Source: Octopus vulgaris (lineage: Eukaryota). From it: a DNA stretch of 64,000 nucleotides. The stretch spans positions 36,642,001 through 36,706,000 of the forward strand of contig OX597820.1 in assembly GCA_951406725.2 (NCBI GenBank), in the 5' to 3' direction. The notes beneath the pieces were generated by a model. The model searched no databases. It saw only the letters and a program-made list of their open reading frames with translations, and had not been told where the DNA came from. The first letter of the stretch is position 1. Each line of letters opens with the position of its first letter. The translations under genes and the position numbers were made by a program. This document shows, piece after piece, positions 14,751 to 49,789 of this stretch.

Positions 14751-15011
14751 TCTTGTTTTTTAAGAAAATTTCAATGGCAGACCGTCACCACACCCCCATT
14801 CCGTCTTTTTCCTTCTTTTTTTTAAAGAATCGCACATTTTCGGCTACGGAGATTCCGAATCTGTAAAGAAATTTGCATTTCAAAATTTATATAAAACAAC
14901 GCGTTTTAATCGATGGCGAACAATAAAGTTTGAATAAAAGCCTTCTTTGAACTGGTTTATGACATTTTGGTGGTCGGGAGTTAAAAGTAAACATTAAAGG
15001 AAAGACTTCCT

Positions 15012-15420
15012 GGATCTTTTCGGTTTGAACGGCAGTTTTTTAAAATAATTTCCACGTAACTAAACACTTTTAAACTTCGTATACTGGTAGAATGTGTTTA
15101 TAAAACATCTTTTTCTCTTGGCTTTATTGAGAAAATTCTATGGTTTGTAAGATATTTGTTGTTGTTTTTTCTTCAATTTCTGCAATTTCAACCAATCAAT
15201 GACGTCTATTGAGGTAAAAAAAAAAAAAACATTCTGTGCCGTATGAATATGTCCCTCGTTTAAGAAACAGATTGGGTTTATTTACATTTGTGAAGAAAAA
15301 AAGATACCCTCCCCCCCTAACCCTAAAACAGATTGAAATGCAATAGATCGATACTAGGGCCATAATTATGGGTGACAATTTCATGACACCACTAGAAAAA
15401 ACTGCCGTTCAAACCGAAAA
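15012..15420. mobile_element. Merlin-like MITE family B, copy 1
   Basis: TIR GGATCTTTTCGGTTTGAACGGCAGTTTTT ... AAAAACTGCCGTTCAAACCGAAAA (right tip lost); near-identical to 20332-20739; absent at the paralogous site ~23100. Confidence 0.85.
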
Positions 15421-15975
15421 TTTCCTGCTTTAAAATGAGTAGACATAAAAAATTCGGGAACAAGGTTGAGAAGGTTATGAAAAATGAAGTCGGGGTGGGC
15501 TATCAAACAGTAGTTCCGTCTGCCATATAAAAAAAACCGGATTTTGGTCGGTAATCTAACAATTTGTTTCATTTTTTAATTAAATTTTGACTTGATATAA
15601 AAGCTTGACAGATAACTTTCTATTATTTATCTCTATGTTATATTATATATTTATTTTCATTCATTATTTACCTTAAATACGTGTTGGGTGCTGAAATGTT
15701 TCTAGCTTTGGATAACAGAAAATACAGAAGAATCGGTTAATTATGATTTTATTTAACATATTTCCGTCAGATTCACACACTTGTTGCAGCGGCCCTTCAG
15801 TTTTTCTAAGTCCTGTAAGTCGGAAGGTTGGCCTCCAACTAGGCCTTTCGCGACACCCTTAACGTCAAGAACTTTTCAACACTCCGTCGTATATCGAGTT
15901 TAAAAATAAATTACGGAAATATGGACATTATTCGATATCTCCAAGCGGACATATCAGACGAACATTAGGTATCTG

Positions 15976-16568
15976 GGCATAGTTTCGGTTGTAGTAGCAC
16001 AGATTTCCGTCGATTTCCGTAAAAAACTTTTATTTTTTTACATAAGTAATGAGAGCGAAAGAGACTAAGAGGAAGCCATTTTACGACGAGAAGGTTTCAC
16101 TTTGAAGTCGGCCTGTGTGTGTTTGATGGGGTGTGGGAGACAGACAGTATGTTGTGTAAGTGAAGTGCTTCTGTTAGTGTGTGCGAAGAGACAGACATAC
16201 ATATACACATACACCGAGTACATACATACATACATACACACACACACATACATAGATACATACACACACACACACATACATGCATACATACATATACACA
16301 TACACCGAGTAAAAAATCAGTTATCTCTCTCTTTCACACATTACTCTCTCTGTCTCTTCGCACACACTAACAGAAGCACTTCACTTACACAACATACTGT
16401 CTGTCTCCCACACCCCATCAAACACACACAGGCCGATTTCAAAGTGAAACCTTCTCGTCATAAAATCGCTTCCTCTTAGTCTCTTTCGCTCTCATTACTT
16501 ATGTAAAAAAATAAAAGTTTTTTACGGAAATCGACGGAAATCTGCGCTACGACATGCGAAACTTCGCC
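15976..16568. mobile_element. Merlin-like MITE family A, copy 1 (long TIRs, (CA)n core)
   Basis: GGCATAGTTTCG...ATTTCCGT and ACGGAAAT...CGAAACTTCGCC; about 200-bp inverted arms; same family as 19414-20294. Confidence 0.85.
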
Positions 16569-17232
16569 TATGCCTTTAACTTTTAGGTGGGGGTTACACG
16601 TTTAAAGATACGGAGATTACAATTTTGTAAAAAAATATTTTCCACTTTCATTTCCTGATCATAAAACGAAAAATACCAAGAAAACACTTTGTTAAAAGGT
16701 TTTATTTATTTTGGAGATGGATAATGATGTTCAATATTTTCTTAATAGTTTTTTTACAAAAATAAATCCATTCAAATGAAAAAAATGTCCAAGGAAAATT
16801 GAAAATCAACTTTTTCACAAAGTACATGATGTGTAAACATAATATATTGGTCGCATGGCCTAAAACAGACAGTACCGAGTTCTCAAATTAGATGTCCCTA
16901 CCGTATGGGGAAAGAAAAAGGTTATAGGAGTAAGGGGAAAAAATCAAATGTCAAACATTAAAATTCATCATAAAAAACAAAATTCAGAATCACAATTACC
17001 AGAATATTAAAAACCTAAGCTGGGAAAAAAAGAAAAACATACCTTTTTCTTTACCCCCCAAAATAGGGACATCTTTTCCGAACCTCACACATAATTATGC
17101 AAATACATTTACAATTATTAAGAACAATCCATATCAGAGGCGTAACAAGATGGGAGACACCGGTGCGAAAAGAAACAAGATTTCTCCTCCTGACTTACCA
17201 TAAGTATTAAATAAGGCGACAAAGTCAAATGT

Positions 17233-18009
17233 CTACCTCTCTGCTGAATTACCAATAGAATCCTTCCATATCTCATGTTCTCTATACTTTTTGTTTATAT
17301 CACGAATTCTTATATTTGACTTCTTTAAATTCTTCGGAGTAATTGTAGTAAGCTTTAGAGCTTTGAGGAAATTCATTCCATCGGTATGATGGTTTTCCCG
17401 ACCTTTGAATAAAACCTCAAGCCTCTTGCGCCAGTCAAACCTATCTACAATTCCTTGTTTCTCATCACTTTCGGGGCAAGGATACTTATGATCGATTATG
17501 TAGAAGTAATAAGGAATTCCTAGCCAACGCGCGACATCCTGAGGTGGAAAGTTATTTTTTTCAAAAAGCTCTCCAATATGTAAAATCATTTCGTTTGTAA
17601 TTTGAAAGGGGTCCTCGTACAGTTCCCATTGACAGAAAGTTTTTTCGCGAATTCTGTGGTCATGTACATTTATGTTAGCCATGCTTTCCCATGTCTCCCA
17701 TTTTTCGAGCAAATGTCCTATGCTAGTTTCTTCTTTTTCGTTCTTCACGCAAGGTTCGAGCCTTTCCTTGATTTCATCCAAGATACTTTTATCTGAACGT
17801 TTACCGCGGGTATCGATGAAAGCAGCGAAGGCGAATACAGGTATTAAACGGACCTTATCAGAGCAGAGAAAGAACTCTTCCATAGTCTTGATAGCAAGAA
17901 AATCCAAACCAAGTTGGATTGAGACTCTAAAGAGGGACTTAGGGTCAGCCAGTTTCTCAGACATCTTTTGTAAATTTTCATAAGAAAACATACAACTATT
18001 GTTTGCCAT
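17233..18009 (-). CDS. orphan protein (258 aa from the ATG at 18009), putative tandem death-fold-like domains
   Basis: Uninterrupted 777-nt ORF in very AT-rich DNA, good Kozak context (CAACC-ATG-G), globular composition; N-terminal motif shared with the 30088-31527 ORF; second repeat ITNEMILHIGELF....PQDVARWLGIP. The domain call is by eye only. Confidence 0.7.
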   Translation of the reverse strand: MANNSCMFSYENLQKMSEKLADPKSLFRVSIQLGLDFLAIKTMEEFFLCSDKVRLIPVFAFAAFIDTRGKRSDKSILDEIKERLEPCVKNEKEETSIGHLLEKWETWESMANINVHDHRIREKTFCQWELYEDPFQITNEMILHIGELFEKNNFPPQDVARWLGIPYYFYIIDHKYPCPESDEKQGIVDRFDWRKRLEVLFKGRENHHTDGMNFLKALKLTTITPKNLKKSNIRIRDINKKYREHEIWKDSIGNSAER

Positions 18010-18590
18010 GGTTGGAAAAAAAAAATTAAACAAAACTGTGTAGACACCAAGGAAATGATTGACGGTCTGTGCCAGTAAATATCACTCCAGAAAATTTATC
18101 AAATCGAATAAGTTAGATTGTTGGGCTCATCCAGTTGTAAGTGATGAATTTAAATGCTTTTAATAAAATAAAGTTATTCGTTGTAAAAGTGAAAAAGGTG
18201 GCAGTGTGTCTGAAAATATAGAAGAACGAAGACCAGTGAAGAGCATTACTTAAATAGCTGCGAAATGAATCTCGCCAATATTTTTTAGTGATAAACGTTT
18301 AGTATTTACACGACTTCCGTGAATAGAAAACAAAAAAAAAACTTACGTCATTAAAACAACAAAAATAACTCGTTTCACAAAATATAACCTCCGGAAGCTT
18401 TCGCCTGTGTCCGATATTCTACGGTATGTTCCGGAGTATAACCGCTATTAAAAAAATAGTAGAGGCAGTAAAAAAAAAAAGATTTTAAAAGTAACTTTGG
18501 ATGATGACTTGTATTAATGACATATATTTGGCTTTAAACTTAAATAAAAGTAAAATCGAAGTGACATTTCTTGACTAGCCTACATATTTC

Positions 18591-18625
18591 GGTTAATGTT
18601 TAAAAGCACACCATTTAGATTAACC
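18591..18625. mobile_element. 35-bp micro-MITE / internally deleted Merlin-like element
   Basis: CATATTTC|GGTTAATGTTTA...TAGATTAACC|CATATTTC: exact 8-bp TSD; termini match the element at 32210-33701. Confidence 0.7.
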
Positions 18626-19413
18626 CATATTTCTAATACATAACCTGCGTAAGTGGATATGTATGTAGATGTTAACTGAGTATATATAGCCTGAATATGT
18701 CAATTGGACTTATATAGTCTTATATGCATGCATACATAGAGATTACCTATATCGCTAATGATAGAAGTCAAAAAATACTTCTGTACAACCAAATATTCAC
18801 AAATCTACTACAGGCAAGATAGGTCTTACCTCAAATGGGTACTCATATATAAATATTTCCTGTGGATGTTGACTATGTATACTTAACATTAATAGTGTAG
18901 CTACATACTATAGGTATTAAGCTTGTGTTATTTATTCCTTGCTATAATACTCTAATACAGCAAATTTATGGGCATACCTGTGGCGGAGACGAATCCCCCC
19001 TCCTACTTCGTTTTTTAATTTGTTTTTTTTTTTTACGGAAACCCACATTTTCGGCTATTGAAATTCTGATTTTGAAAAAAAATGGCAACTTCAAAATTTC
19101 AATACCCACTTCATTTTTCACTTTCTTCAGAAACCTTTTTTTTTTTTTTTTTTTGGCGAAATACGGAAATTATGATCCTGAAAACAAATTGTTTGTAAAA
19201 TTTCAATTTTACAAAAAAAAAAAATTTAATTACCCCCAAACCCCTCTCCTCCCGATTTACGGCCTTCAAGCAGGATACCCACATGCTAGAAATAACAGCC
19301 AAATCTCACAGATACTCTTATCAGTCTTTGCATTTCCCTTGGATAACATTGGTGGCATGGTGACGGTAGGCTGGAACGCATGGGTGACTGCCGGTCTTCT
19401 ATAAACAAATTTG

Positions 19414-20294
19414 GGCATAGTTTCGGTTGTAGTAGCACAGATTTCCGTAAAAAACTTTTATTTTTTTACATAAGTAATGAGAGCGAAAGAGACTAAGAGG
19501 AAGAAATTTTACGACGAGAAGGTTTCACTTTGAAGTCGGCCTGTGTGTGTTTGATGGGGTGTGGGAGACAGACAGTATGTTGTGTAAGTGAAGTGCTTCT
19601 GTTAGTGTGTGCGAAGAGACAGACATACATATACACATACACCGAGTACATACATACATACACACACACACACACATACATAGATACATACACACACACA
19701 CATACATACATACATACACACACACATACTTACACACACACACACATAGATACATACACACACACACATACATGCAGACATACATATACACATACACCGA
19801 GTAAAAAATTACACTGAATCGACCATACATACATACACACATACATACATACACATACACACATACATAGATACATACACACACACACATACATGCAGAC
19901 ATACATATACACATACACCGAGTAAAAAATTACGATGAATCGGCCATACATACATACATACACACATACTTACACACACACACATACATAGATACATACA
20001 CACACACACACATACATGCATACATACATATACACATACACCGAGTAAAAAATCAGTTATCTCTCTCTTTCACACATTACTCTCTCTGTCTCTTCGCACA
20101 CACTAACAGAAGCACTTCACTTACACAACATACTGTCTGTCTCCCACACCCCATCAAACACACACAGGCCGATTTCAAAGTGAAACCTTCTCGTCATAAA
20201 ATCGCTTCCTCTTAGTCTCTTTCGCTCTCATTACTTATGTAAAAAAATAAAAGTTTTTTACGGAAATCTGCGCTACGACATGCGAAACTTCGCC
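19414..20294. mobile_element. Merlin-like MITE family A, copy 2
   Basis: CAAATTTG|GGCATAG ... CTTCGCC|CAAATTTG (8-bp TSD); internal ~120-bp CA-rich units ending in CACCGAGTA. Confidence 0.9.
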
Positions 20295-20331
20295 CAAATT
20301 TGCCCAGACTTGTATCTTGGAGGGGGACTTT

Positions 20332-20739
20332 GGATCTTTTCGGTTTGAACGGCAGTTTTTTAAAATAATTTCCACGTAACTAAACACTTCTAAACTTCGT
20401 ATACTGGTAGAATGTGTTTATAAAACATCTTTTTCTCTTGGCTTTATTGAGAAAATTCTATAGTTTGTAAGATATTTGTTGTTGTTTTTTCTTCAATTTC
20501 TGCAATTTCAACCAATCAATGACGTCTATTGAGGTAAAAAAAAACATTCTGTGCCGTATGAATATGTCCCTCGTTTAAGAAACAGATTGAGTTTATTTAC
20601 ATTTGTGAAGAAAAAAAAGTTACCCTTCCCCCTAACCCTAAAACAGATTGAAATGCAATAGATCGATACTAGGGTCATAATTATGGGTGACAATTTCATG
20701 ACACCGCTAGAAAAACTGCCGTTCAAACCGAAAAGATCT
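20332..20739. mobile_element. Merlin-like MITE family B, copy 2
   Basis: GGGACTTT|GGATCTTTTCGG ... CCGAAAAGATCT|GGGACTTT (8-bp TSD). Confidence 0.9.
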
Positions 20740-20952
20740 GGGACTTTCTAAGTGTAATCTCATGGTCATTCATGACCAAAGGAGATTTTTACCCTTTTCT
20801 CCTTTTTTCTAGATATCCTCTACAAAAACCTGCACTACCGCACTTCCTTCTCATAGTTTATTCCTTTGTTCACTGGCATGAAGCTGACGCCCATTTCACA
20901 GGATTTGTAGTTCTGCGAAGTTCATGGATGTTAGATGGGTACTACTTGAGAA

Positions 20953-21183
20953 CAGTGGTCCCGGTGCGCGCACTCGCGTAGTCGCGCATCCGCGCTAGCT
21001 AGTCGTAACTAGTCGATCCTACAACGACTACCTAGCAAAGTAAATAAAACACAAAATAAATAATTTTTTAACACAAAATAATTTTTGTTAAACAAAGTAA
21101 ATAAAACACAAAAACACAAAGTAAGGATCGACTAGTCATGACTAGCTAGCGCGGATGCGTGAGTGCGCGCACCGGGACTACTG
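20953..21183. mobile_element. GC-rich fold-back MITE
   Basis: CAGTGGTCCCGGTGCGCGCACTC...CTAGTCGATCCT mirrored by AGGATCGACTAG...GAGTGCGCGCACCGGGACTACTG; no clear TSD. Confidence 0.7.
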
Positions 21184-21364
21184 TTTCTAGCACGTCTCAC
21201 GATAACCCTCCTCGTTTCTTTCTCTCTCTTGCATGTATTGATGTTTTTCAATATTTTTCTTCCCATAAAAACATGTAGCGGACTCTCTCTCTCTCTCTTT
21301 CTCTGTTATATATACATGAATACGGACGTAGTAGATAACAGCTAGCCTTCGGCTACTTGGAACC

Positions 21365-22236
21365 TGTTGTATCCACTACTCTGATTGGTTGGTATTGGCG
21401 CAGTTTGTCTCTTGCTCTGTTACACGCCAATGTGCAACCCAACCAATCGCAGCTTTCTGATAAGGTCACGTGAGACAGTCTTTTCTAAACCTCAGTTGCG
21501 CCGATTGAATGGTATAAAAAAGCTAGTTTCAACACCGTATTTCATCTTTCGGTTAGTCTAGACCTTCTAAGGTCTAACCACTGACCACAGAGCACACAGC
21601 CAGTTCCAGCGACAACACCAGCAGCCACATTGGAGACTCAACATTCATCCAACAGCATACAGCAATCTCCATCTCCGTCATCAACATCTCTACATACACC
21701 GCAACCAGCAACCGTCGCACAGGTTTTATCTCAACACTGTTCGTGAATTACTTCACCATGGTTAACAGCTAATACAACCTGCGAGATGTGTATCAAGTAA
21801 CCGGCACTGCATAGTAGCCACAGTTTCCCGCACGCCTTGTGCCTCAATCGGCTCTGCTTCTTCGCCACAACTTCTTGTTACAGGACTTCAACTATCGCGT
21901 ACCTTGACTACGAACTGGTATTTATTCATCCTTGTGTCTGAGCATTCTTCTAGCGGTCCTATTATGGACTCTTTCTATGCTCTGTATTTTAATGCACACA
22001 CATACACATGATGTATACATGACGGCCTGTCTATTGTTATTATTATATATGTACTTATGACGCACACACAGACACACACGTTAATTTATCAATAAAATCT
22101 TCTCTTAACATTCTATCGGTTGTGTCGTCTCTTTTCCTTCTGGCACTCATACACATTTATTCTTTTCGCATCTCTTGTAAACGACCGTGCGGTGTATTAA
22201 AGGAGCTGATAGACGGACACTGTCTTTATTTAACGT
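21365..22236 (+). mobile_element. solo-LTR-like element
   Basis: Starts TGTTG; has CCAAT boxes, TATAAAA (~21513) and AATAAA (~22091); patchy similarity to 39550-40424 (CCAGTTCCAGCGACA, GGTTAACAGC, CCTGCGAGAT, TACGAACTGGTA). No TSD found. Confidence 0.5.
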
Positions 22237-22503
22237 AAAACAATACGCTTAAATAAGAATATAAGAAATAAACTTGACTTCTCTCACAAACGAGAATACT
22301 AAAAATGAACGCGACTCCTCTCAAAAATTAAGTAAAAAGAAAATGGAAAAATAATCCAGTATCCTTGTCCGGTACCTGATCGATCCGACGGACATGGCGG
22401 ACCGTTGCCATACCCCCATTCCACACCCCCTTTTTTAAAAAAAGAAACCCACATTTTCGGCTACGGAGATTCCGAATCTGTAAAAAATATTTACATTTCA
22501 AAA

Positions 22504-22902
22504 TCTATATATATAAAAGTGAGGTTGTGTGCTGTCTGTCTCCTACGATTTAGATTCCTTACTCCCACATTTTGCGGTGCAGTTTAACCAAAAGCGGGTA
22601 TCTTATAGTCGTGATTCATATCGAGCCCTTCTGAGTATTAGCGCGCGTCTACGATGAGTCTACGATTTAAAAAAAAAAATTACCATAATTTTTCCGCATT
22701 TTTAATGCATTTTCGCTCGGTTTATATAAGGGAAGTAACTCTCTAAAAATGTATTATTAAATCTCAGAACGTAAAAAGCTACAGTAACAACCCCCTCGTT
22801 GTGGTTAGCCATATTGAGATGGCTATTATACTTTACATCTCTAAAAATGCTTATATAGTTATTTCCCTTACAAACCCGAGCAACGCCGGGCGATACTGCT
22901 AG
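22504..22902 (+). mobile_element. non-autonomous Helitron
   Basis: A|TCTATATATATAAAA 5' end; 3' hairpin CCCGAGCAACGCCGGG then CTAG|T; no TSD; the empty paralogous site CAAAA|TTTATATAAAACAACGCG is at ~14885. Confidence 0.92.
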
Positions 22903-23639
22903 TTTAATATAAAACAACGCGTCTTAATCGTTGGACAGCAGTGATTAACCTATTAGATGGCGAGCAATAAAGTTTGAATAAAAGCCTTCTTTGAACTGGT
23001 TTATGACATTTTGCTGGTCGGGAATTAAAAGTAAACATGAACCAATGTATGTGTTAAAATTACTTTAAAAAACCACCCTCGATTCAATGATACAAACTTC
23101 CTGCTTTAAAATAGGTAGACATAAAAAATTCGGGAAGGTTATGAAAAACTAAGTCGGAGGTGGGGCATCAAACAGTAGATCCGTCTGCAATACTAAAAAC
23201 CGGGGTTAATGTTTACAACGGGTCGGATTATTCAAAAGCTTGACAGAAAACTTTCTATTATCAATCTCTACGTTATATTAAATATTTATTTTCATTCATT
23301 ATTTACCTTCAATATGTGTTGGGTACTGAAATGTTTCTAGCTTTGTGTAACAGAAAATACAAGAGAATCGGTTAATTATTATAAAGTTTTCAAACTTTTA
23401 GTTTCCCCACACACCCGCCTACTTTTAACTTTTATGTGGGGGTTACACATCTAAAGATACAGAGATTACAATCTTGAAAAAAAAAAATCCACTTTCATTT
23501 CGTGTTCATAAAACGAAAAATACCAAGAAAACACTTTAAGAGCTTTTATTTGTTTTGGAGATGGATACTGATGTTCAATATTTTCTTAAAAGTTTTTTTA
23601 CAAAGATAAATCCGTTCGAATGAAAAAAATGTTAAGGGA

Positions 23640-23932
23640 TGTGGGATGACGTCAGCAGCCGGACGTCAGCAGCGGGGTGCGTTGACCGGAAGCTGGGGCA
23701 AGCGGAAGGGGTCAGCTGTCAAGCGTGCGCAGGGGACGGAAATTGACTTTTCCAACGTGGGTCGTGCTGGGGACAAGACGTGCGAGGACGTCGCTAAAGA
23801 GTTTGGGGCCAGCAGCTACTATCGTTAGTGTTCGGGTAGGGGCTGTGAGGAAGGACCAGTCATCTCTGGAGGATCTCCGTCACCGCGAAGAGAAGGTAGG
23901 TGCCTCTATATTCAAATCGCACACTCACTACA
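23640..23932 (+). repeat. 5' LTR
   Basis: TGTGGGATGACGTCA...CACTCACTACA; differs from the 3' LTR by a 14-bp duplication and five transitions. Confidence 0.95.
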
Positions 23933-23977
23933 AGCTATTTCGGCAGTTCGTAAACATTCTCATTTTTTTTCAACACG

Positions 23978-24739
23978 ATGTCTGCAAAAATTAGGATCGC
24001 CAGTGACGTCGTCAGACCTTTTAACGGCGAAGGCGATGTAGTGGCCTGGATTCGGAAAATCAGGCTGGTGGCGAGACTGCAGGGCATAAGCGACGTGGCG
24101 AGTCTTATGGCGCTGTATTTGGAAGGGAGTGCGTTGTCGCTTTACCTAGAGATGGATGAAGAGGAACGGCTCTGCGATGAGAATATAGAGCGGCGCTTGT
24201 GTGACGCATACACGGAATGCGAGTACACAGCTTTCGCTAGGCTAGGTGCAATCAGGTGGACGGAAGGCCAGGTGGATGATTTTGCATCGGAAGCTAGAAG
24301 GCTAGCGACTCTGCCGGGTTTGCCGGAGAAGGACTGGAGAGAGCAGCCCGACTGGCGTTCGTGAATGGGTTCCCCGACGATGTAGGGATTCACCTACAAC
24401 GACTCCCCGGGTCAAAAAGATGCCATTGAGCGAACTTGTAGCTCATGCTCGGCGTTGACGAGACACTCTGGGCGGAAGGCGATAGCGATGGCTGTGACGG
24501 AGGCGCGTAAAGACGGACGACGTCCCGAGAAAGAGGTACAGAAGCTCACCGTGCAACGAGAGCGGCCGTTCTCAGGACGGTGTTTTAGATGCCAGGGACC
24601 GCACATGGCGCGGGACTGTACGCAGCCGGGGCCCGTTTGCTATCGATGCAGGTAGACAGGGCACATTGCCCGTGATTGCGGCCAGGGAAACGACCGCGGG
24701 GAAGTTGCTGCCTCTCGAACTTTCCCCTCAAACGAGTAG
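23978..24739 (+). pseudogene. gag: Gypsy gag (frameshifts, one stop)
   Basis: RPFNGEGDVVAWIRKIRLVA...YLEGSALSLY; zinc knuckles CFRCQGPHMARDC and CYRCR*TGHIARDC. Confidence 0.85.
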
Positions 24740-24743
24740 AGGC
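24685..24743 (+). other. -1 programmed ribosomal frameshift signal (slippery heptamer plus pseudoknot)
   Basis: G-GGA-AAC in gag phase, 6-nt spacer, stem GGGGAAGTT/AACTTTCCCC, loop GCCTCT pairing with downstream AGAGGC; pol is in the -1 frame. Confidence 0.8.
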
Positions 24744-27550
24744 GCTATTGGAGACGCTGCCATTGATTGACGTGGAGGCCGAGGGGGAGACGTTCGAGGC
24801 CCTTGTGGATACGGGCTGTACGACCACCCTGGTGACTTCGAGGGTGACGAAGGAATGGAACGGGGTGTGTAGTGTCCGGGCGGTCGACGGCAGCGAAATC
24901 CGTTGCAGAGGCAGCAGCAAGGTAGAGATAGTGGTGCGCGGCGCGACGCTAAGGCTACAGGCAATTGTGGCCGAACGCGTGATAAATGGAGTTGATGTGG
25001 TGATGGGGATGGACGCCATCAACTGCCTCGGTGGCGTCAGTGTTGTGGGAAATGAGGTCACGTTCGGAAGCGTGGGGGCGTCGTGCACTGCGAGTCAGGA
25101 TCGCCAGAGGAAGCAGAGCCCCGCGAGGGACTGCGCCGCTTACACCATCGAGGACAAAGACTTTCAGGCGGCGTTCGATGGTCAGCGGTGGACGATAGAG
25201 TGGAAATGGAAGGACGAGCCCCCGACACTGGAGAACAGGGTGAGCTGTTACCAGCATACACTGAAAGGCCACGCCAGGGTTGAGTTTGAAGACGAGGTGG
25301 AGAGGTGGATCGAGGAAGGGGTCCTTGTCCCTTGGAAGGAGGAGGTAGCGGGCGGAGTGCTACCCCTGATGGCGGTGGTGCAGCCTACGAAGGGAAAAGT
25401 CAGACCGGTGCTGGACTTCAGGGAGCTAAACCAGCACATATCGTGTCACACGGGAGGTGAGGCGACAGACGTTTGTGGTGAGGCATTACGTAAGTGGAGA
25501 CAGTCAACTGAGGCAGCGACGATTGTCGACTTGAGATCGGCATACTTGCAGCTCCATGTGAGCGACAAACTATGGCGATATCAGCTGGTGCGGTACAAGG
25601 GCTGGACGTACTGTCTAACCAGGCTGGGTTTCGGGCTGAATTCCGCTCCGAAGATCATGGCGGCAGTGCTTAGGTCCGTCCTAGGGAAAGACGGCAAGAT
25701 TAGAAAGGCCACCAGCTCCTACATTGACGACATTTTGGTGGACGAAACCGTAGTGCCAGCCGACGAGGTAGTTAGACATCTGGAGAAGTTCGGACTGATT
25801 GCTAAGCCACCGGAGTCGATTGAAGGGGGAGCCGCGCTGGGGCTGAAGCTGCGAAGAGATAGATCAGGTGAATTGGTGTTCCGGAGAGGAAATGAAATCC
25901 CAGAGCTGAGTTCCAGCGTCAGCAGCAGAGAGCTGTTCTCGGTGTGTGGGAAGTTGGTCGGTCACTACCCGATCGCTGGATGGCTGCGCACGGCGTGTAG
26001 TTACACCAAGAGACGAGCAGAAGGAGAGAGGTGGGGCGACAAGGTGGGAGAAGGGACGGTGGCGATGATGCAGGAGATCCTAGAGAGGACAAGAGCGGAA
26101 GACCCGGGGGGAACTGGTACGTGCCCAAGACGAAATGCGGGACCGTCAGGTGTGATGCTAGCAGTATAGCGGTAGGGGTGGTGTTGGCAATCGAAGGCAC
26201 TGCGGTGGAGGACGCGGCCTGGCTTCGGAAAGCAGATGATTTCAACCACATCAATGTCGCCGAATTAGACGCGCTGCTGAAAGGGGTGAACTTGGCCTTG
26301 AAATGGGGGCTGCGCACGATTGAAATGCGGACGGATTCGGCCACTGTCCTTGGCTGGGTAGGATCGGTGATCACCGGTGACAGGAGAGTGCGGACGAAAG
26401 GTGCTGCGGAGATGTTAGTGAAGCGCGGTCTAGGAGTTCTAGGTGAATTGATCGCCGAATTCGGACTGAAGCTGAACGTGGTTTTCGTGCCTTCGGAGAA
26501 AAACAAGGCGGACGTACTGACCAGGGTGAAAAGGGCGTGGTTGGAAGAACCGGAGGAGGCCCGGAAAGGGATAGCTGCGGCGTGTCGGTTGGATGACTCT
26601 GAACTGAAGAAACTGCACGCTATGCATCACCTGGGTGTGGACAGGACCCTGTATCTGGCAAAAAAATTGATGCTGACGTCACCAGGAGAAGCGTCCGGAA
26701 GGTGGTCGGGAGCTGCGACAGGTGTCAGTCCATCGACCCTGCTCCGAGTGGGCATGAGCAGGGAAGCCTTTCCGTGGAGCAGAACTGGAAAAGGCTAGCT
26801 GTGGATGTGACACACTACCGTCAGCGAATGTACCTCTCCATGATCGACTGTGGGCCGGGCCGGCTGGCCATTTGGAGGGAGTTGAGATCAGGCATTGCTG
26901 ACGAGATCGTGCAGATCCTGAACGGGATATTTTTAGAGAGAGGTCCCGTGGAAGAACTACTGATGGACAACGGGGCGGCGTTTCGTTCGGAAGCATTGAG
27001 GGTTATGCTTGATCGGTGGAACGTGCGACGCTTGTTCAGAGCAGCGTATAGGCCGGGCGGTAACGAGATCGTGGAGAGGCACCATCGGACAGTCAAGGCC
27101 ATAGCGGAAAGAGGGCACATTTCGCCGCTTGAAGCAGTTTTTTGGTACAACTTGTCTCCCCGATCCGGACAAGCTGAGGAATCTGTGCCGCAGAGAGCTG
27201 TGTTCAAATATGAATGGAGGCACCCGAGCAAAGCGCCGGAGGGTCACGAGGAAGAGAAGGGACCCGTTCGCGTGAAAATAGGGGAGGAAGTCTGGGTCAA
27301 GCCACCGAAGGCGCGCTGTACGTCTCAATGGAGCAGAGGAACGGTGACGGCGATCAATTCCAGAAGCAACGTATCCGTAGATGGCACACCACGACATGTC
27401 TTGGACCTTCGCAGGATTGTTGCTTCGACGGACGATGATTCGGGAGAGGGGGAGAATGAGGAGCCCAGCTTGAGAAGATCTCGACGAGCAAGGCGCTCTC
27501 CCGGTTGGATGGTAGACTACAACATGGAGCGGAGAGATTGTGATCTTTAA
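24691..27550 (+). pseudogene. pol: Gypsy pol (PR-RT-RNase H-IN) with two frameshifts
   Basis: ALVDTGCTT (PR), VRPVLDFRELN, VDLRSAYLQ, FGLNSAP, YIDD (RT), CDASS/AELDA (RNase H), HH..CDRC, AVDVTH, MDNGAAF, IVERHHR (IN); breaks near the G6 run (~26110) and the A7 run (~26662). Confidence 0.95.
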
Positions 27551-27563
27551 GATCAGGGTGTCG

Positions 27564-27842
27564 TGTGGGATGACGTCAGCAGCGGGGTGCGTTGACCGGA
27601 AGCTGGGGCAAGCGGAAGGGGTCAGCTGTCAAGCGTGCGTAGGGGGCGGAAATTGACTTTTCCAACGTGGGTCGTGCTGGGGACAAGACGTGCGAGGACG
27701 TCGCTAAAGGGTTTGGGGCCAGTAGCTGCTATCGTTAGTGTTCGGGTAGGGGCTGTGAGGAAGGACCAGTCATCTCTGGAGGATCTCCGTCACCGCGAAG
27801 AGAAGGTAGGTGCCTCTATATTCAAATCGCACACTCACTACA
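27564..27842 (+). repeat. 3' LTR
   Basis: TGTGGGATGACGTCA...CACTCACTACA followed by the TSD AGGGA. Confidence 0.95.
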
Positions 27843-27860
27843 AGGGAAAGTGAAAATCAA

Positions 27861-28488
27861 GTGGGGAGAGGACTTCGGAAAATTCACCAGGTCCGAGCTT
27901 TTTCCTAATAACTTTTAGGAAAATGGGATTTTTTTCAATGAAATTTTATAGAAATACCTTTCAAACGGCATACATTACGATTATAAAGAAATTTGTGGGG
28001 GAATTCTTGAGGTGGGGAGAGCACTTTCGGAAAATTCCCAAGATCCGAATTTTTCCTCGTTCTATTCCGAAATCACATTTAACTATCTACAGATACCCTA
28101 GCGTATGTGTTTAAATCTACCCACTTTCAATCATTTTTAATGTTTTCGCTTCAGTCTTATTTCATTTTCAATTATTTATACGCTCTTTTAACACTTCATC
28201 GTTATTCTCATTCACTCATTACTTTCTCTGTATCTATCTATCTATATATATATATATAATAAATACATATATCATATACATACACAAATATATATGTCAT
28301 GAAGGAAAAACTTGGATCTTGTGAATTTTCCGAAGTCCTCTCCCCACCCTCCCGTTGCTTTGCACGCATATTTTTTCATATTCGTTTCCTACACATTGTT
28401 TTACACCCATCCCAGTATTTTTTCTTTTTTCTTTTCTTTTTTTTTTATTATTGATTTTCATTTCCGGTTCAAGATATAAACATTAACC
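27861..28488. mobile_element. truncated Merlin-like modular fold-back element (family C)
   Basis: GTGGGGAGAGGACTTCGGAAAATTCAC modules; right end ...TAAACATTAACC; interior is the reverse complement of ~32550-33190. Confidence 0.8.
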
Positions 28489-28629
28489 AAAAGTTTTTCA
28501 AAAAAATGCATTTTTCAAGGTGAGGTGCGAAACTGCATTAGCCCCATTTCAGTCAAGCTGTTGAAACGTGAAGCTAACGGTTTAAGAAATACTCCTAATT
28601 GGCAAAATTACAGTATGAGTACCGTTACT

Positions 28630-29336
28630 GTCACATACACACATACATGCAGACATACATATACACATAGATCGAGTAAAAAATTCCAGTTATCTCTTTC
28701 TTTCACACATACTAACAGAAGCACTTCACTTACACAACATACTGTCTGTCTCCCACACCCCATCAAACACACACACACACATGTACATCAATGCTTCCCC
28801 TGGACGGTAACTTCAAAAGAACTTCCCTCGTCATACAATCGCTTTCTCTTAGTCTCTTTCGCTCTCATTACTTATGTAAAAAAATTTGGTAATCTTTCGT
28901 TTTAACTCGAAATAATGTAAACACTGAATCGGCCATACATACACACACACACATAGATACATATACACACACATACATGCATACATACATATACACATAC
29001 ATGCATACACACGCACGCACTATAAAAACCGAGTAAAAATATTCAGTTATCTCTCTCTTTCACACATTACTCTCTCTGTCTCTTCACACACACTAACAGA
29101 AGCACTTCACTTACACAACATACTTTCTGTTTCCCACACCCCATCAAACACACACATGTACATCAATGCTTCCCATGCACGGTAACTTCAAAAGAACTTC
29201 CCTCGTCATACAATTGCTTTCTCTTAGTCTCTTTCGCTCTCATTACTTCAAAAGTTCCCGCAAGCCCATATGCAAAAAAATAAAAGTTTTTTTACGGAAA
29301 TCGACGGAAAAGTATACTAGAACCGTAAGATTGCCG
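28630..29336. mobile_element. partial family-A-related MITE sequence
   Basis: Two copies of CTAACAGAAGCACTTCACTTACACAACATAC...CCCATCAAACAC; ends AAAGTTTTTTACGGAAATCGACGGAAA...GATTGCC. Confidence 0.7.
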
Positions 29337-30087
29337 AATAAGAATTAAATAAAAGAACTAGAAATCTAAACTTAAAATATTTTATTATTTTCAGTACAGA
29401 AAATTATCAAATTAATTCAACACTGTTCATGGTCAATTAATATTTTTGCAGGTGTCAATTGAATAATTGCAAAGAAAAAATGGGAATGAAGGGGGGGGGG
29501 GTAGACGAGGAAGTATAGAAACAAAAATATTACTTTAGTTTCATAGTGAAATTGATGGAAGAGGAGAATCTGTTGAGTGGATTAGGAAAAAGTGATTTAC
29601 ATAGAGTTGTAATATTAAATGAAGTATAGACGATGAAATAGTTGTAATAACTTCAGAATGAGATGCTATAAATTTTTGTGAGTTCAGGTTTGATGTGATG
29701 TAGAACGAGGGAGGGAGGTGATCTACATATATATGAGCAACATTATAGTTCAAAGCATATTTTGTCGTTGTAAACGATTCGGATATATGAAATGTTTTTT
29801 TTTTTTTTTTTTTTTCTTTTCGTAATGACAGTAAACATCTATATATTAAAGTAGGGAAATAACGAAAAGCCTAAAGGGAAGAAAGAGAAAGGAAATAATA
29901 TATAAACTGGAACAGAAATATCAGGGAGGTGAAAGGCACAAGAATGTAAAAACAGCGGATGAAAAATTATAAATGTATCCGAAACAATTCTTCACAAAAT
30001 CAAAATTTGTAAAACTAACAAACCGATGCTTAGTAATCATTTAAAAATAACAGAAAAGACAAAAGGGTGAATAAAAAATTCAAATCC

Positions 30088-31527
30088 CTAAAACATGCTA
30101 TTGATGCTAGGGCCCTCAATAGCATATACTCTTGTTGTGACGTATTTACCTTCCTTCTGTATTTCACGGAACTTTGCGAAGCCTTCATAATTCTTGTGGA
30201 GCAGATATTGGTCGAGAGTAAGAGCAAATTTCTCTTCTGGCCACTTGGCTCTCCATATGCATAGGACCCGGAAAGTACGTAGCCAACGGCAGTTGGCAAA
30301 TTTCCTTTCTAACTCTATATTGTGATCTCTAAGACTGTGTAACATATCTCCTTTCCACATGCGATTTGAATCAACGACCCGAATCAGATTAATTAAATAT
30401 TGATCAGTAAACAGTCTCTCATCATATTGAACGTAACATTTGGTGTGTGCTGTGAGATTTCGTTCCACCGGTAGAAAACAATTTATAAGTCTGTGTGAGA
30501 ACAATTGTCTCAGCTTTTCTTCCCAGCTTCTTATCTCCTGGTCCTCTTTAGAATCCATGAGATAGCCCTTTACGGTAGAATATATTTTGATTAATTTAAA
30601 CAAAGGGTATTCGACGAATTTTGGTGTTTCGGTTGGATATTCAGGAAAACGTTTCTTTTTAGTAGAGCTCTGTTTCTCATCAGAAGTAGAACTCTGTTCA
30701 TTATCTGGGGAAAGAGTTTCTTGATTTGTCGATGTTACTTCATTTTTCTTTGGTGAATTTTCATTTATGATCTTATAAGTGTAGTGTTTAGTTGCATGTT
30801 CTTCGAATGCTTTCAGTTTTTCCTCATAATCCCTTTTTTTCTTTACTCTTGTAAAGTAGTCATCGATATCATCCAAACAGAGAATGTGTTTATAGCGTTC
30901 CAATTTAGTTTTCTGCTTTATAATATCTTCGAACAATGCCAAACAATCGTCTTTCCTTTTATCGAACTCCTCTAATAACCATCTCATGAAGTGATCTTCA
31001 TATTTATCACGAAAAGTACAATCCATAGTGTATTCGTAAGTTTCTTTCTTTATACGTGCCTTCAAAGTTTTTTGGGCTCCGCGTGGACAGCCAAATATAT
31101 TGAAAGGCCATGACGACAGCTTTAAAACTTCTCGTACTCTTCGGTAAAATCTAAAATCAGTTTCATTTGGATTCAAAGCGAGATAATTACAGATAAATTC
31201 GTAAATTGCATCATGAAACATCGAATCTGCCTTTCTATCGTAATCGATATGAAATATCCCAGTAAAACTATTCACTGCCAGTTCAGAAAATCCAAGCGTA
31301 TATCCTAATCTAAAAGCAACATCACGATCGTTAATGCTGTCTGCCCACTTCCGTATATTTTCGTGCGTGAAGAAACCTTTGTATTCTTTGCAATTCATGG
31401 CAATAACAACATCTTCCTGTTCCACAGGACTTTCCCAAAACTTTATTCGGTATTTTTCCGCATCCTCAAGAGTTGGCCCTTTTGCATTCTCATCGTTTGG
31501 CCCAGACCTCGTCTCTTGTACTTCCAT
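30088..31527 (-). CDS. orphan protein (479 aa), putative N- and C-terminal death-fold-like domains with a charged/low-complexity linker
   Basis: Uninterrupted 1440-nt ORF starting AAA-ATG-G; N-terminal motif aligns ungapped with the 17233-18009 ORF; C-terminal LFTDQYLINLIRVV...W...RTFRVLCIWRAKWPEEKFALTLDQYL resembles death-domain helices. The domain call is by eye only. Confidence 0.78.
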   Translation of the reverse strand: MEVQETRSGPNDENAKGPTLEDAEKYRIKFWESPVEQEDVVIAMNCKEYKGFFTHENIRKWADSINDRDVAFRLGYTLGFSELAVNSFTGIFHIDYDRKADSMFHDAIYEFICNYLALNPNETDFRFYRRVREVLKLSSWPFNIFGCPRGAQKTLKARIKKETYEYTMDCTFRDKYEDHFMRWLLEEFDKRKDDCLALFEDIIKQKTKLERYKHILCLDDIDDYFTRVKKKRDYEEKLKAFEEHATKHYTYKIINENSPKKNEVTSTNQETLSPDNEQSSTSDEKQSSTKKKRFPEYPTETPKFVEYPLFKLIKIYSTVKGYLMDSKEDQEIRSWEEKLRQLFSHRLINCFLPVERNLTAHTKCYVQYDERLFTDQYLINLIRVVDSNRMWKGDMLHSLRDHNIELERKFANCRWLRTFRVLCIWRAKWPEEKFALTLDQYLLHKNYEGFAKFREIQKEGKYVTTRVYAIEGPSINSMF

Positions 31528-48652: not shown

Positions 48653-49789
48653 ATGGAAGGTAAGGGTGAAACACAGTCTGAAACTAGTGATTTAACTCCT
48701 CACACTGAAGTAAATAAAAAGAAGAAATCATATCCTTGTGACATTTGCGGAAAGACATTCTCACAAAGTAGTAATGTAATTCAGCATAAATTAATTCACT
48801 CTGGTTCAAAACCTTATGCTTGTGGTGTTTGTGGTAAGAGGTTCACTGCAAATAGTTCTCTTTCTTGTCATAAACGGATCCACACAGGGGAAAGACCCTA
48901 CAACTGTAATGTCTGTGGTAAAGCATTTACAATCAAAAGCAATTTGACAAGCCATGAACGCATACATTCTGGAGAGAAGCCATTTCATTGTGAAGTATGT
49001 GGCAAAACATTAGCTCGCAGTACAGAGTTAGCTCATCATATACGGACACACACAGGGGAAAAACCATATCAGTGTGATGTTTGTGACAAGGCATTCTCTA
49101 AAAAGGATTCTTTGGTACGCCACCAACGTATTCATACCGGAGAGAAACCATACAGCTGTGATATTTGTGGAAGAACATTCTCTCTAAAGGGTTCTTTATC
49201 CACTCACCAGCGAACTCATGAAGATAAGTTATCGTATCAGTGTAATATATGTGGTAAAATATTATATCGAAAACATGATTTAGTGAGGCATAATTGTGCT
49301 CGCACTCTACAGAGACGATTTATATGCAATGTTTGTGGTGAAGAGTTTCTTCAGAAATGTCATTTATTTAACCACAAACAAACTCATGCAGGAGAAAAAC
49401 CATACCACTGTGACATTTGTGATAAACCATTCTCACAGAAAAATCAACTGCTTGTCCACAAACGTACACACACAGGAGAAAAACCTTATAACTGTGATAT
49501 CTGTGGTTATATGTTCTCTCAGAAAGGTCATTTGTCTCGTCACAGACGAATTCACACTGGTGATAAACTATACCTCTGTGATATCTGTGGTAAAAGTTTC
49601 TCTCGATGTAATAATTTGTCATCTCATGTGCGCACACATACGGGTGAGAAACCATTTGAATGTGATGTCTGCGGTGAAGCTTTCACCGTAAATAGTCAAT
49701 TATCTACTCACAAAGGTATTCACAGAAGAAGCAATACATATTTCACAGTGAATATTGTCACTAAGACATTTAAACCTCCTGACAATTAA
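48653..49789 (+). CDS. C2H2 zinc-finger protein, 12 tandem fingers (finger 7 is C2HC), single coding exon
   Basis: 378-aa ORF with repeated (Y/F)xCxxCGKxFxxxxxLxxHxRxHTGEKP; TCC-ATG-G start; possible upstream splice acceptor TATTTCAG|G at ~48172. Confidence 0.93.
   Translation: MEGKGETQSETSDLTPHTEVNKKKKSYPCDICGKTFSQSSNVIQHKLIHSGSKPYACGVCGKRFTANSSLSCHKRIHTGERPYNCNVCGKAFTIKSNLTSHERIHSGEKPFHCEVCGKTLARSTELAHHIRTHTGEKPYQCDVCDKAFSKKDSLVRHQRIHTGEKPYSCDICGRTFSLKGSLSTHQRTHEDKLSYQCNICGKILYRKHDLVRHNCARTLQRRFICNVCGEEFLQKCHLFNHKQTHAGEKPYHCDICDKPFSQKNQLLVHKRTHTGEKPYNCDICGYMFSQKGHLSRHRRIHTGDKLYLCDICGKSFSRCNNLSSHVRTHTGEKPFECDVCGEAFTVNSQLSTHKGIHRRSNTYFTVNIVTKTFKPPDN

Follow-up and report, generated by a model that had tools for sequence, protein, structure and literature searches.

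Two uninterrupted octopod genes predicted to encode highly divergent death-domain proteins

What do two long open reading frames (ORFs) encode when they stand intact among broken transposons and match no known family? The question is raised by a window of 64,000 nucleotides from Octopus vulgaris (contig OX597820.1, positions 36,642,001 to 36,706,000), the whole stretch of DNA analysed here. An earlier note, made from the letters alone, had described in it an orphan family of tandem death-fold proteins: ORF1 (P0001), of 258 amino acids (aa) at 17233-18009, and ORF2 (P0002), of 479 aa at 30088-31527, both on the minus strand. We read the two as highly divergent octopod death-domain (DD) proteins that would act as adaptors or decoys through DD binding, with a probability of roughly 0.55.

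Two intact genes and their octopod relatives

Both frames were recovered as described, with no internal stops and with strong Kozak contexts (A at -3 and G at +4 at both starts). Their length is beyond chance: given the base composition, a window should contain about 5e-5 frames as long as ORF1 and 7e-13 as long as ORF2. A search of the animal's own 2.8-Gb genome gave a single match for each, and two further proteins encoded in that genome are identical, residue for residue, to Octopus vulgaris records, in keeping with the species of the window. In agreement with the earlier note, no transposase, reverse transcriptase (RT) or zinc-finger motif was seen, and neither ORF matched any Pfam family meaningfully (best E 0.16 for the full-length proteins and 0.064 for one cut piece). 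Catalytic, TIR, LRR, kinase, ZU5, ankyrin and receptor domains were likewise not detected in either protein.

The orphan label had to be given up, as relatives of both genes are present in other octopods. For ORF1 these are XP_036360574.1 of O. sinensis (93% identity), P0003 (57%) and GAB1609508.1 of Argonauta hians (marked partial; 30-37% over two blocks). ORF2 is related to P0004 (66%) and to A. hians GAB1603233.1 (33% over 447 columns). A search of 1.84 billion representatives returned five proteins at E<=0.001, namely ORF1 itself, P0004, the two Argonauta proteins and one repetitive protein, which was dropped as a relative. Searched back, the two Argonauta proteins matched only ORF1/ORF2 at E<1e-3, and within the sensitivity limits of the searches no relative beyond octopods was named. 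Since argonauts belong to a superfamily of their own within the octopods (PMC9635652), both genes should be older than the argonaut split. The O. sinensis relative is annotated as uncharacterized, in a record labelled isoform X1, and the Argonauta relatives as hypothetical; a literature search, supplements not covered, turned up no publication on either gene.

Conservation is uneven along both proteins. Residues 48-140 of ORF2 are identical to P0004 at 87 of 93 positions and to the Argonauta protein at 46, compared with 23/49 and 15/49 in the linker and 58/88 and 35/88 in the C-terminal unit 2. Against O. sinensis, the two units of ORF1 retain 82/84 and 97/99 residues and the linker 24/33. The O. 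sinensis differences cluster in this linker (aa 89-121; 17647-17745), together with an indel, and it is possibly a fast-evolving segment. Full-length relatives with unbroken frames, 33-66% identical and with conservation confined to the domains, support the claim that selection has kept the frames open; intact frames and uneven conservation together would indicate purifying selection. Read differences occur within ORF2 at 30420, 30435 and 30631. Two of these are amino-acid replacements (codons 370 and 365) and one is silent; they are likely alleles, and that in codon 365 is present in two runs.

Both genes are likely expressed. No sequencing run was recorded as RNA, and the RNA nature of the runs was guessed. 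Fourteen such runs (five studies; assemblies of 15-110 million letters) contain 86-100% of the sampled words from the ORF1 region. Such coverage would be hard to explain by DNA runs, because the stretch is single-copy in a 2.8-Gb genome and the assemblies are small. In two of these runs ORF2 is spanned by contigs without joints. The cover runs out at 29418 and 29491, a short way ahead of the candidate poly(A) signal (29381-29386, minus strand; the sole AATAAA/ATTAAA hexamer in 29300-30087), a weak hint only. The contigs reveal neither ends, strand nor level. The candidate signal of ORF1 lies at 16705-16710 (minus strand), the sole such hexamer in 16500-17232. Just upstream of the ORF1 start, a pyrimidine-rich stretch with a branch-point-like motif and a final AG (18040-18130) could be a splice acceptor in the 5' untranslated region.

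Evidence for death domains and for a shared family

ORF1 is predicted to be all-helical and to consist of two likely divergent DDs, unit 1 (about aa 8-88; 17746-17988, minus strand), which contains the segment common with ORF2, and unit 2 (about aa 138-250; 17260-17598, minus strand). ORF2 begins with a likely DD, unit 1 (about aa 47-141; 31105-31389, minus strand), which is its best-conserved part. A helical middle follows (about aa 180-256; 30760-30990, minus strand), then a low-complexity linker and unit 2 (about aa 371-458; 30154-30417, minus strand), a conserved helical domain with DD-like spacing. The middle contains a predicted 39-residue helix, belongs to no recognised family and gave no score on the DD profile.

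None of the seven family proteins or four cut pieces passed the curated cut-off of Pfam Death (PF00531), and ORF1 and ORF2 are absent from the 44 Death matches of their own genome. Against a profile of octopus DDs, ORF1 unit 1 reached P 6e-4, with 0/60 column shuffles as good and 0/40 in the global comparison. Across units 1 and 2 of ORF1 the values were 2e-4 to 8e-4, again with 0/60 and 0/40 shuffles as good under a lenient null. Neither unit was significant against the CARD and death effector domain (DED) profiles; for unit 1, 55/60 shuffles scored equally well on CARD and 54/60 on DED, a profile of three rows only. An AlphaFold2 model of ORF1 gave no DD match for unit 1. For the N-terminal part of ORF2 a structure search was informative, as 31 of the 36 rows were death-fold chains (48,161 chains aligned), at 10-13% identity and with DDs ranked above DEDs.

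The idea of a death fold is thus largely right in kind. It stands at moderate strength for both units of ORF1, from profiles, and for ORF2 unit 1, from structure: the latter is very probably a DD, and the DD-DD layout of ORF1 is probable. Two points weigh against the reading as first stated, which was stronger for the shared family and for ORF2 unit 2. The latter aligns in register with the DD profile over 74 columns, yet 35/40 shuffles score equally; its model has a predicted local distance difference test score of 32-43 and yielded no DD row. A second DD at the C-terminus of ORF2 is therefore tentative. The analogy to tandem-DED decoys such as vFLIP found no support at family level: 0/4 units score on the three-row octopus DED profile, Pfam DED is found in neither ORF, and neither is among the three DED matches of the genome.

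A real death fold would also suit scaffolds outside immunity and cell death, in the germline, development or cytoskeleton. The DDs of ankyrin and of nuclear matrix protein p84 belong to such scaffolds, and the DDs of ankyrin-G (rank 2) and p84 (rank 7) stood among the best structure rows, tied with apoptotic DDs. The lack of any detected effector or sensor domain fits this as well, and the near-invariance of ORF2 unit 1 (87/93) points to a constant partner, not to an arms race. However, overall divergence is fast (identity is 93% with O. sinensis, where the changes concentrate in the linker, and about 33% with Argonauta), as is typical of immune regulators, and the genome holds several arrays of death-fold genes, so that a role of this kind appears unlikely.

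Alternatively, ORF1 and ORF2 may be unrelated all-helical octopod genes whose DD likeness and common segment arise from amphipathic helix patterns. The ratio of death-fold chains among the structure rows argues against this, as does the specificity of the DD-profile scores relative to CARD and DED profiles and to helical control regions. With three methods agreeing on DD, chance likeness is quite improbable, and the death-domain reading is retained below.

Are the two genes one family? The earlier count of 11 identities in a common 36-residue segment was reproduced, and BLASTP aligned ORF1 and ORF2 with 12/41 identical residues (E 2e-4). The likeness is limited to about 45 N-terminal residues. 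For four pairs (P0001 or P0005 with P0002 or P0004) the score was reached by 2-9 of 3000 shuffles; for the two pairs involving P0003 it was reached by 866 and 552 of 3000, which weakens the family claim. Full-length profile-profile comparison gave P 0.035 with two rows each and 0.0029 with four and three rows. Between cut N-terminal units it gave 2.4e-4, the best of 15 unit pairs, and the N-terminal alignment spans 42-51 columns at P 2.4e-4 to 0.003. One mixed ORF1+ORF2 profile recovered relatives of both, partly by construction. As judged from these alignments, the protein similarity is marginal. DNA similarity was again not visible, the local score between the coding sequences being matched by 9/100 shuffles.

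The statement that each protein has a second similar unit did not survive, as the second units align neither with the first units nor with each other; among them, only that of ORF1 has independent DD support. Old paralogy is plausible, and on the available alignments the two genes may well be paralogues, but the case rests on about 45 residues and is inseparable from shared DD ancestry, which alone could produce the signal. Moreover, the Argonauta relatives of ORF1 and ORF2 sit on separate records of 10.5 and 2.7 Mb, so the adjacency of the two genes may not be old.

Origin and genomic neighbourhood

The genome encodes other death-fold proteins in single open frames: a FADD-like DED+DD protein of 185 aa (L102:1489-2046, plus strand), a CARD+CARD protein of 205 aa (L093:1459-2076, minus strand) and a CARD+DD protein of 218 aa. 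Because canonical DED+DD and CARD+DD genes sit elsewhere in the genome, ORF1 and ORF2 are not orthologues of FADD or CRADD. CRADD-like CARD+DD genes of about 215-240 aa, also single frames, form a cluster at G000:C14:75.54-75.63 Mb (L061, L068, L077, L094, L095, L098). Eleven CARD-encoding frames lie within about 200 kb at G000:C24:38.85-39.06 Mb (L081-L091), with more CARD clusters on C26. Closely similar DD exons of an expanded family on G000:C29 and C31 (L059, L062-L067 and, in part, L069-L078) account for about 20 of the 44 Death matches.

The suggested viral or transposon origin found no support. The BFVD viral search gave 0 matches at E<=0.001, phage records gave none to either ORF, and among IMG/VR candidates 0/88 matched ORF1 and 1/56 matched ORF2, the single case being a brief alignment within a helicase-like ORF that is unrelated. 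No viral homologue or viral gene context was found with 11 neighbouring ORFs Pfam-scanned, a weak test as the libraries are thin in invertebrate DNA viruses. ORF1 and ORF2 are each flanked by inverted repeats. The signature of Pack-type capture (one terminal-repeat pair, a shared target-site duplication and several copies) is lacking, because these repeats are separate palindromic elements with copies elsewhere in the surrounding 464 kb, one of them bearing an 8-bp duplication of its own, and there is one copy per gene. Nor is intronlessness a viral sign, because the DED+DD, CARD+DD and CARD+CARD genes of the genome are also single frames. Arrival as virus or transposon cargo (vFLIP-like decoys or Pack-type capture) with later domestication would suit the intronless coding regions, the inverted repeats and the separate Argonauta records, which leave room for genes that moved, but given the viral searches, the dispersed repeats, the single copies and the uninterrupted host FADD-like and CRADD-like genes it is very unlikely. 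The simplest reading would be that a DD gene of the host was duplicated or retroposed.

The surrounding transposon ORFs are indeed broken, with pieces of RT, integrase and GIY-YIG; the neighbourhood holds fragments of long interspersed nuclear elements, long terminal repeat (LTR) elements and GIY-YIG elements together with a C2H2 zinc-finger gene. Downstream of ORF1 lies a palindromic repeat resembling a miniature inverted-repeat transposable element (15971-16568), a dispersed repeat outside the gene. A second copy lies upstream (19406-20302); the 8-bp sequences at its two ends are identical and were taken for a target-site duplication, which would mark an independent insertion. Between ORF1 and ORF2 stands a broken LTR retroelement (23630-27844, plus strand) with 273-bp repeats 98% alike and fragments of RT and integrase. 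The two repeats can be matched only from 23662/27572, and the ends of the element lack an evident target-site duplication, which suggests a rearranged junction. The downstream flank of ORF1 (14774-16788) has a second copy, 76-95% alike, at 22394-23632, ending at the LTR element. The duplicated part takes in the end of the 3' region of ORF1, poly(A)-type hexamer included, and its 16575-16788 portion is matched at length nowhere else in the genome. This copy is possibly the remnant of a duplicated ORF1 that lost its coding part; tblastn found no coding remnant there. The C2H2 gene lies at 48653-49789. A long cluster of similar single-frame genes extends from +117 to +259 kb past the window start, and inspection showed many more C2H2-type ORFs across the next 200 kb.

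Proposed function and known systems

Death-fold domains serve as homotypic adaptors in apoptotic and immune complexes (PMC8195603). O. vulgaris haemocytes express MyD88, IRAK and TRAF6 (PMC4199593). By analogy, ORF1 and ORF2 would take part in DD complexes like the Myddosome, DISC or PIDDosome. Lacking a DED or CARD for caspase recruitment, ORF1 might bridge two DD partners; alternatively, it might cap a growing assembly or occupy DD surfaces and so damp the signal before the caspase. ORF2 could be a scaffold acting through its near-invariant N-terminal DD, whose partner would then be a fixed one; the long helix and the C-terminal domain would form the scaffold part. More speculatively, and with considerable doubt, the genes may form an octopod two-gene module, a DD-DD adaptor or decoy and a DD-stalk-DD scaffold, that arose from a single ancestor ahead of the split between argonauts and octopuses and has since diverged too far for any profile to detect. 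Such a module would rewire or brake apoptosis or the Toll pathway in a manner peculiar to this lineage, and more death-fold genes would then be expected to hide among the cephalopod genes classed as orphans.

Both genes escape any survey of cephalopod apoptosis and immunity that relies on Pfam. If the DD call is right, the two are candidates for regulators of cell death or of innate signalling that are specific to octopods, and they would be examples of ordinary signalling folds that have diverged past detection and so pass for cephalopod orphan genes. FADD and CRADD are present in molluscs, and a survey of lophotrochozoans detected neither PIDD nor TRADD (PMC11463336); on this basis ORF1 and ORF2 may be candidate DD partners for the several CARD+DD genes of the genome.

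Among known systems, the DD subfamily of PF00531 (the DDs of PIDD, FADD, RIPK1, ankyrin-G and TNFR1) is 10-13% identical in the structure rows, below Pfam detection, and no LRR, kinase, TIR, ZU5, ankyrin or receptor part was detected in ORF1 or ORF2. FADD (DED+DD) and CRADD/RAIDD (CARD+DD) resemble ORF1 in size and two-unit layout, and their octopus counterparts share its single open frame; their N-terminal DED or CARD, however, is something that neither ORF1 unit scores as. The short tandem-DED decoys vFLIP and c-FLIP differ in the same respect, and no viral homologue or context was found here in libraries thin in invertebrate DNA viruses. Primate POP2 inhibits NF-kB and inflammasomes and is likely of retrogene origin (PMC3056782). 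Like ORF1 and ORF2, POP2 and the other POPs and COPs are lineage-restricted and consist of death-fold domains only, which makes them a model for a decoy role. Each of them is a single PYD or CARD copied from a recognisable parent gene, whereas the octopod units are DD-like, much older and without an identifiable parent. From their sequences, ORF1 and ORF2 would thus be an octopod-restricted form of a known type of signalling adaptor, with a predicted function.

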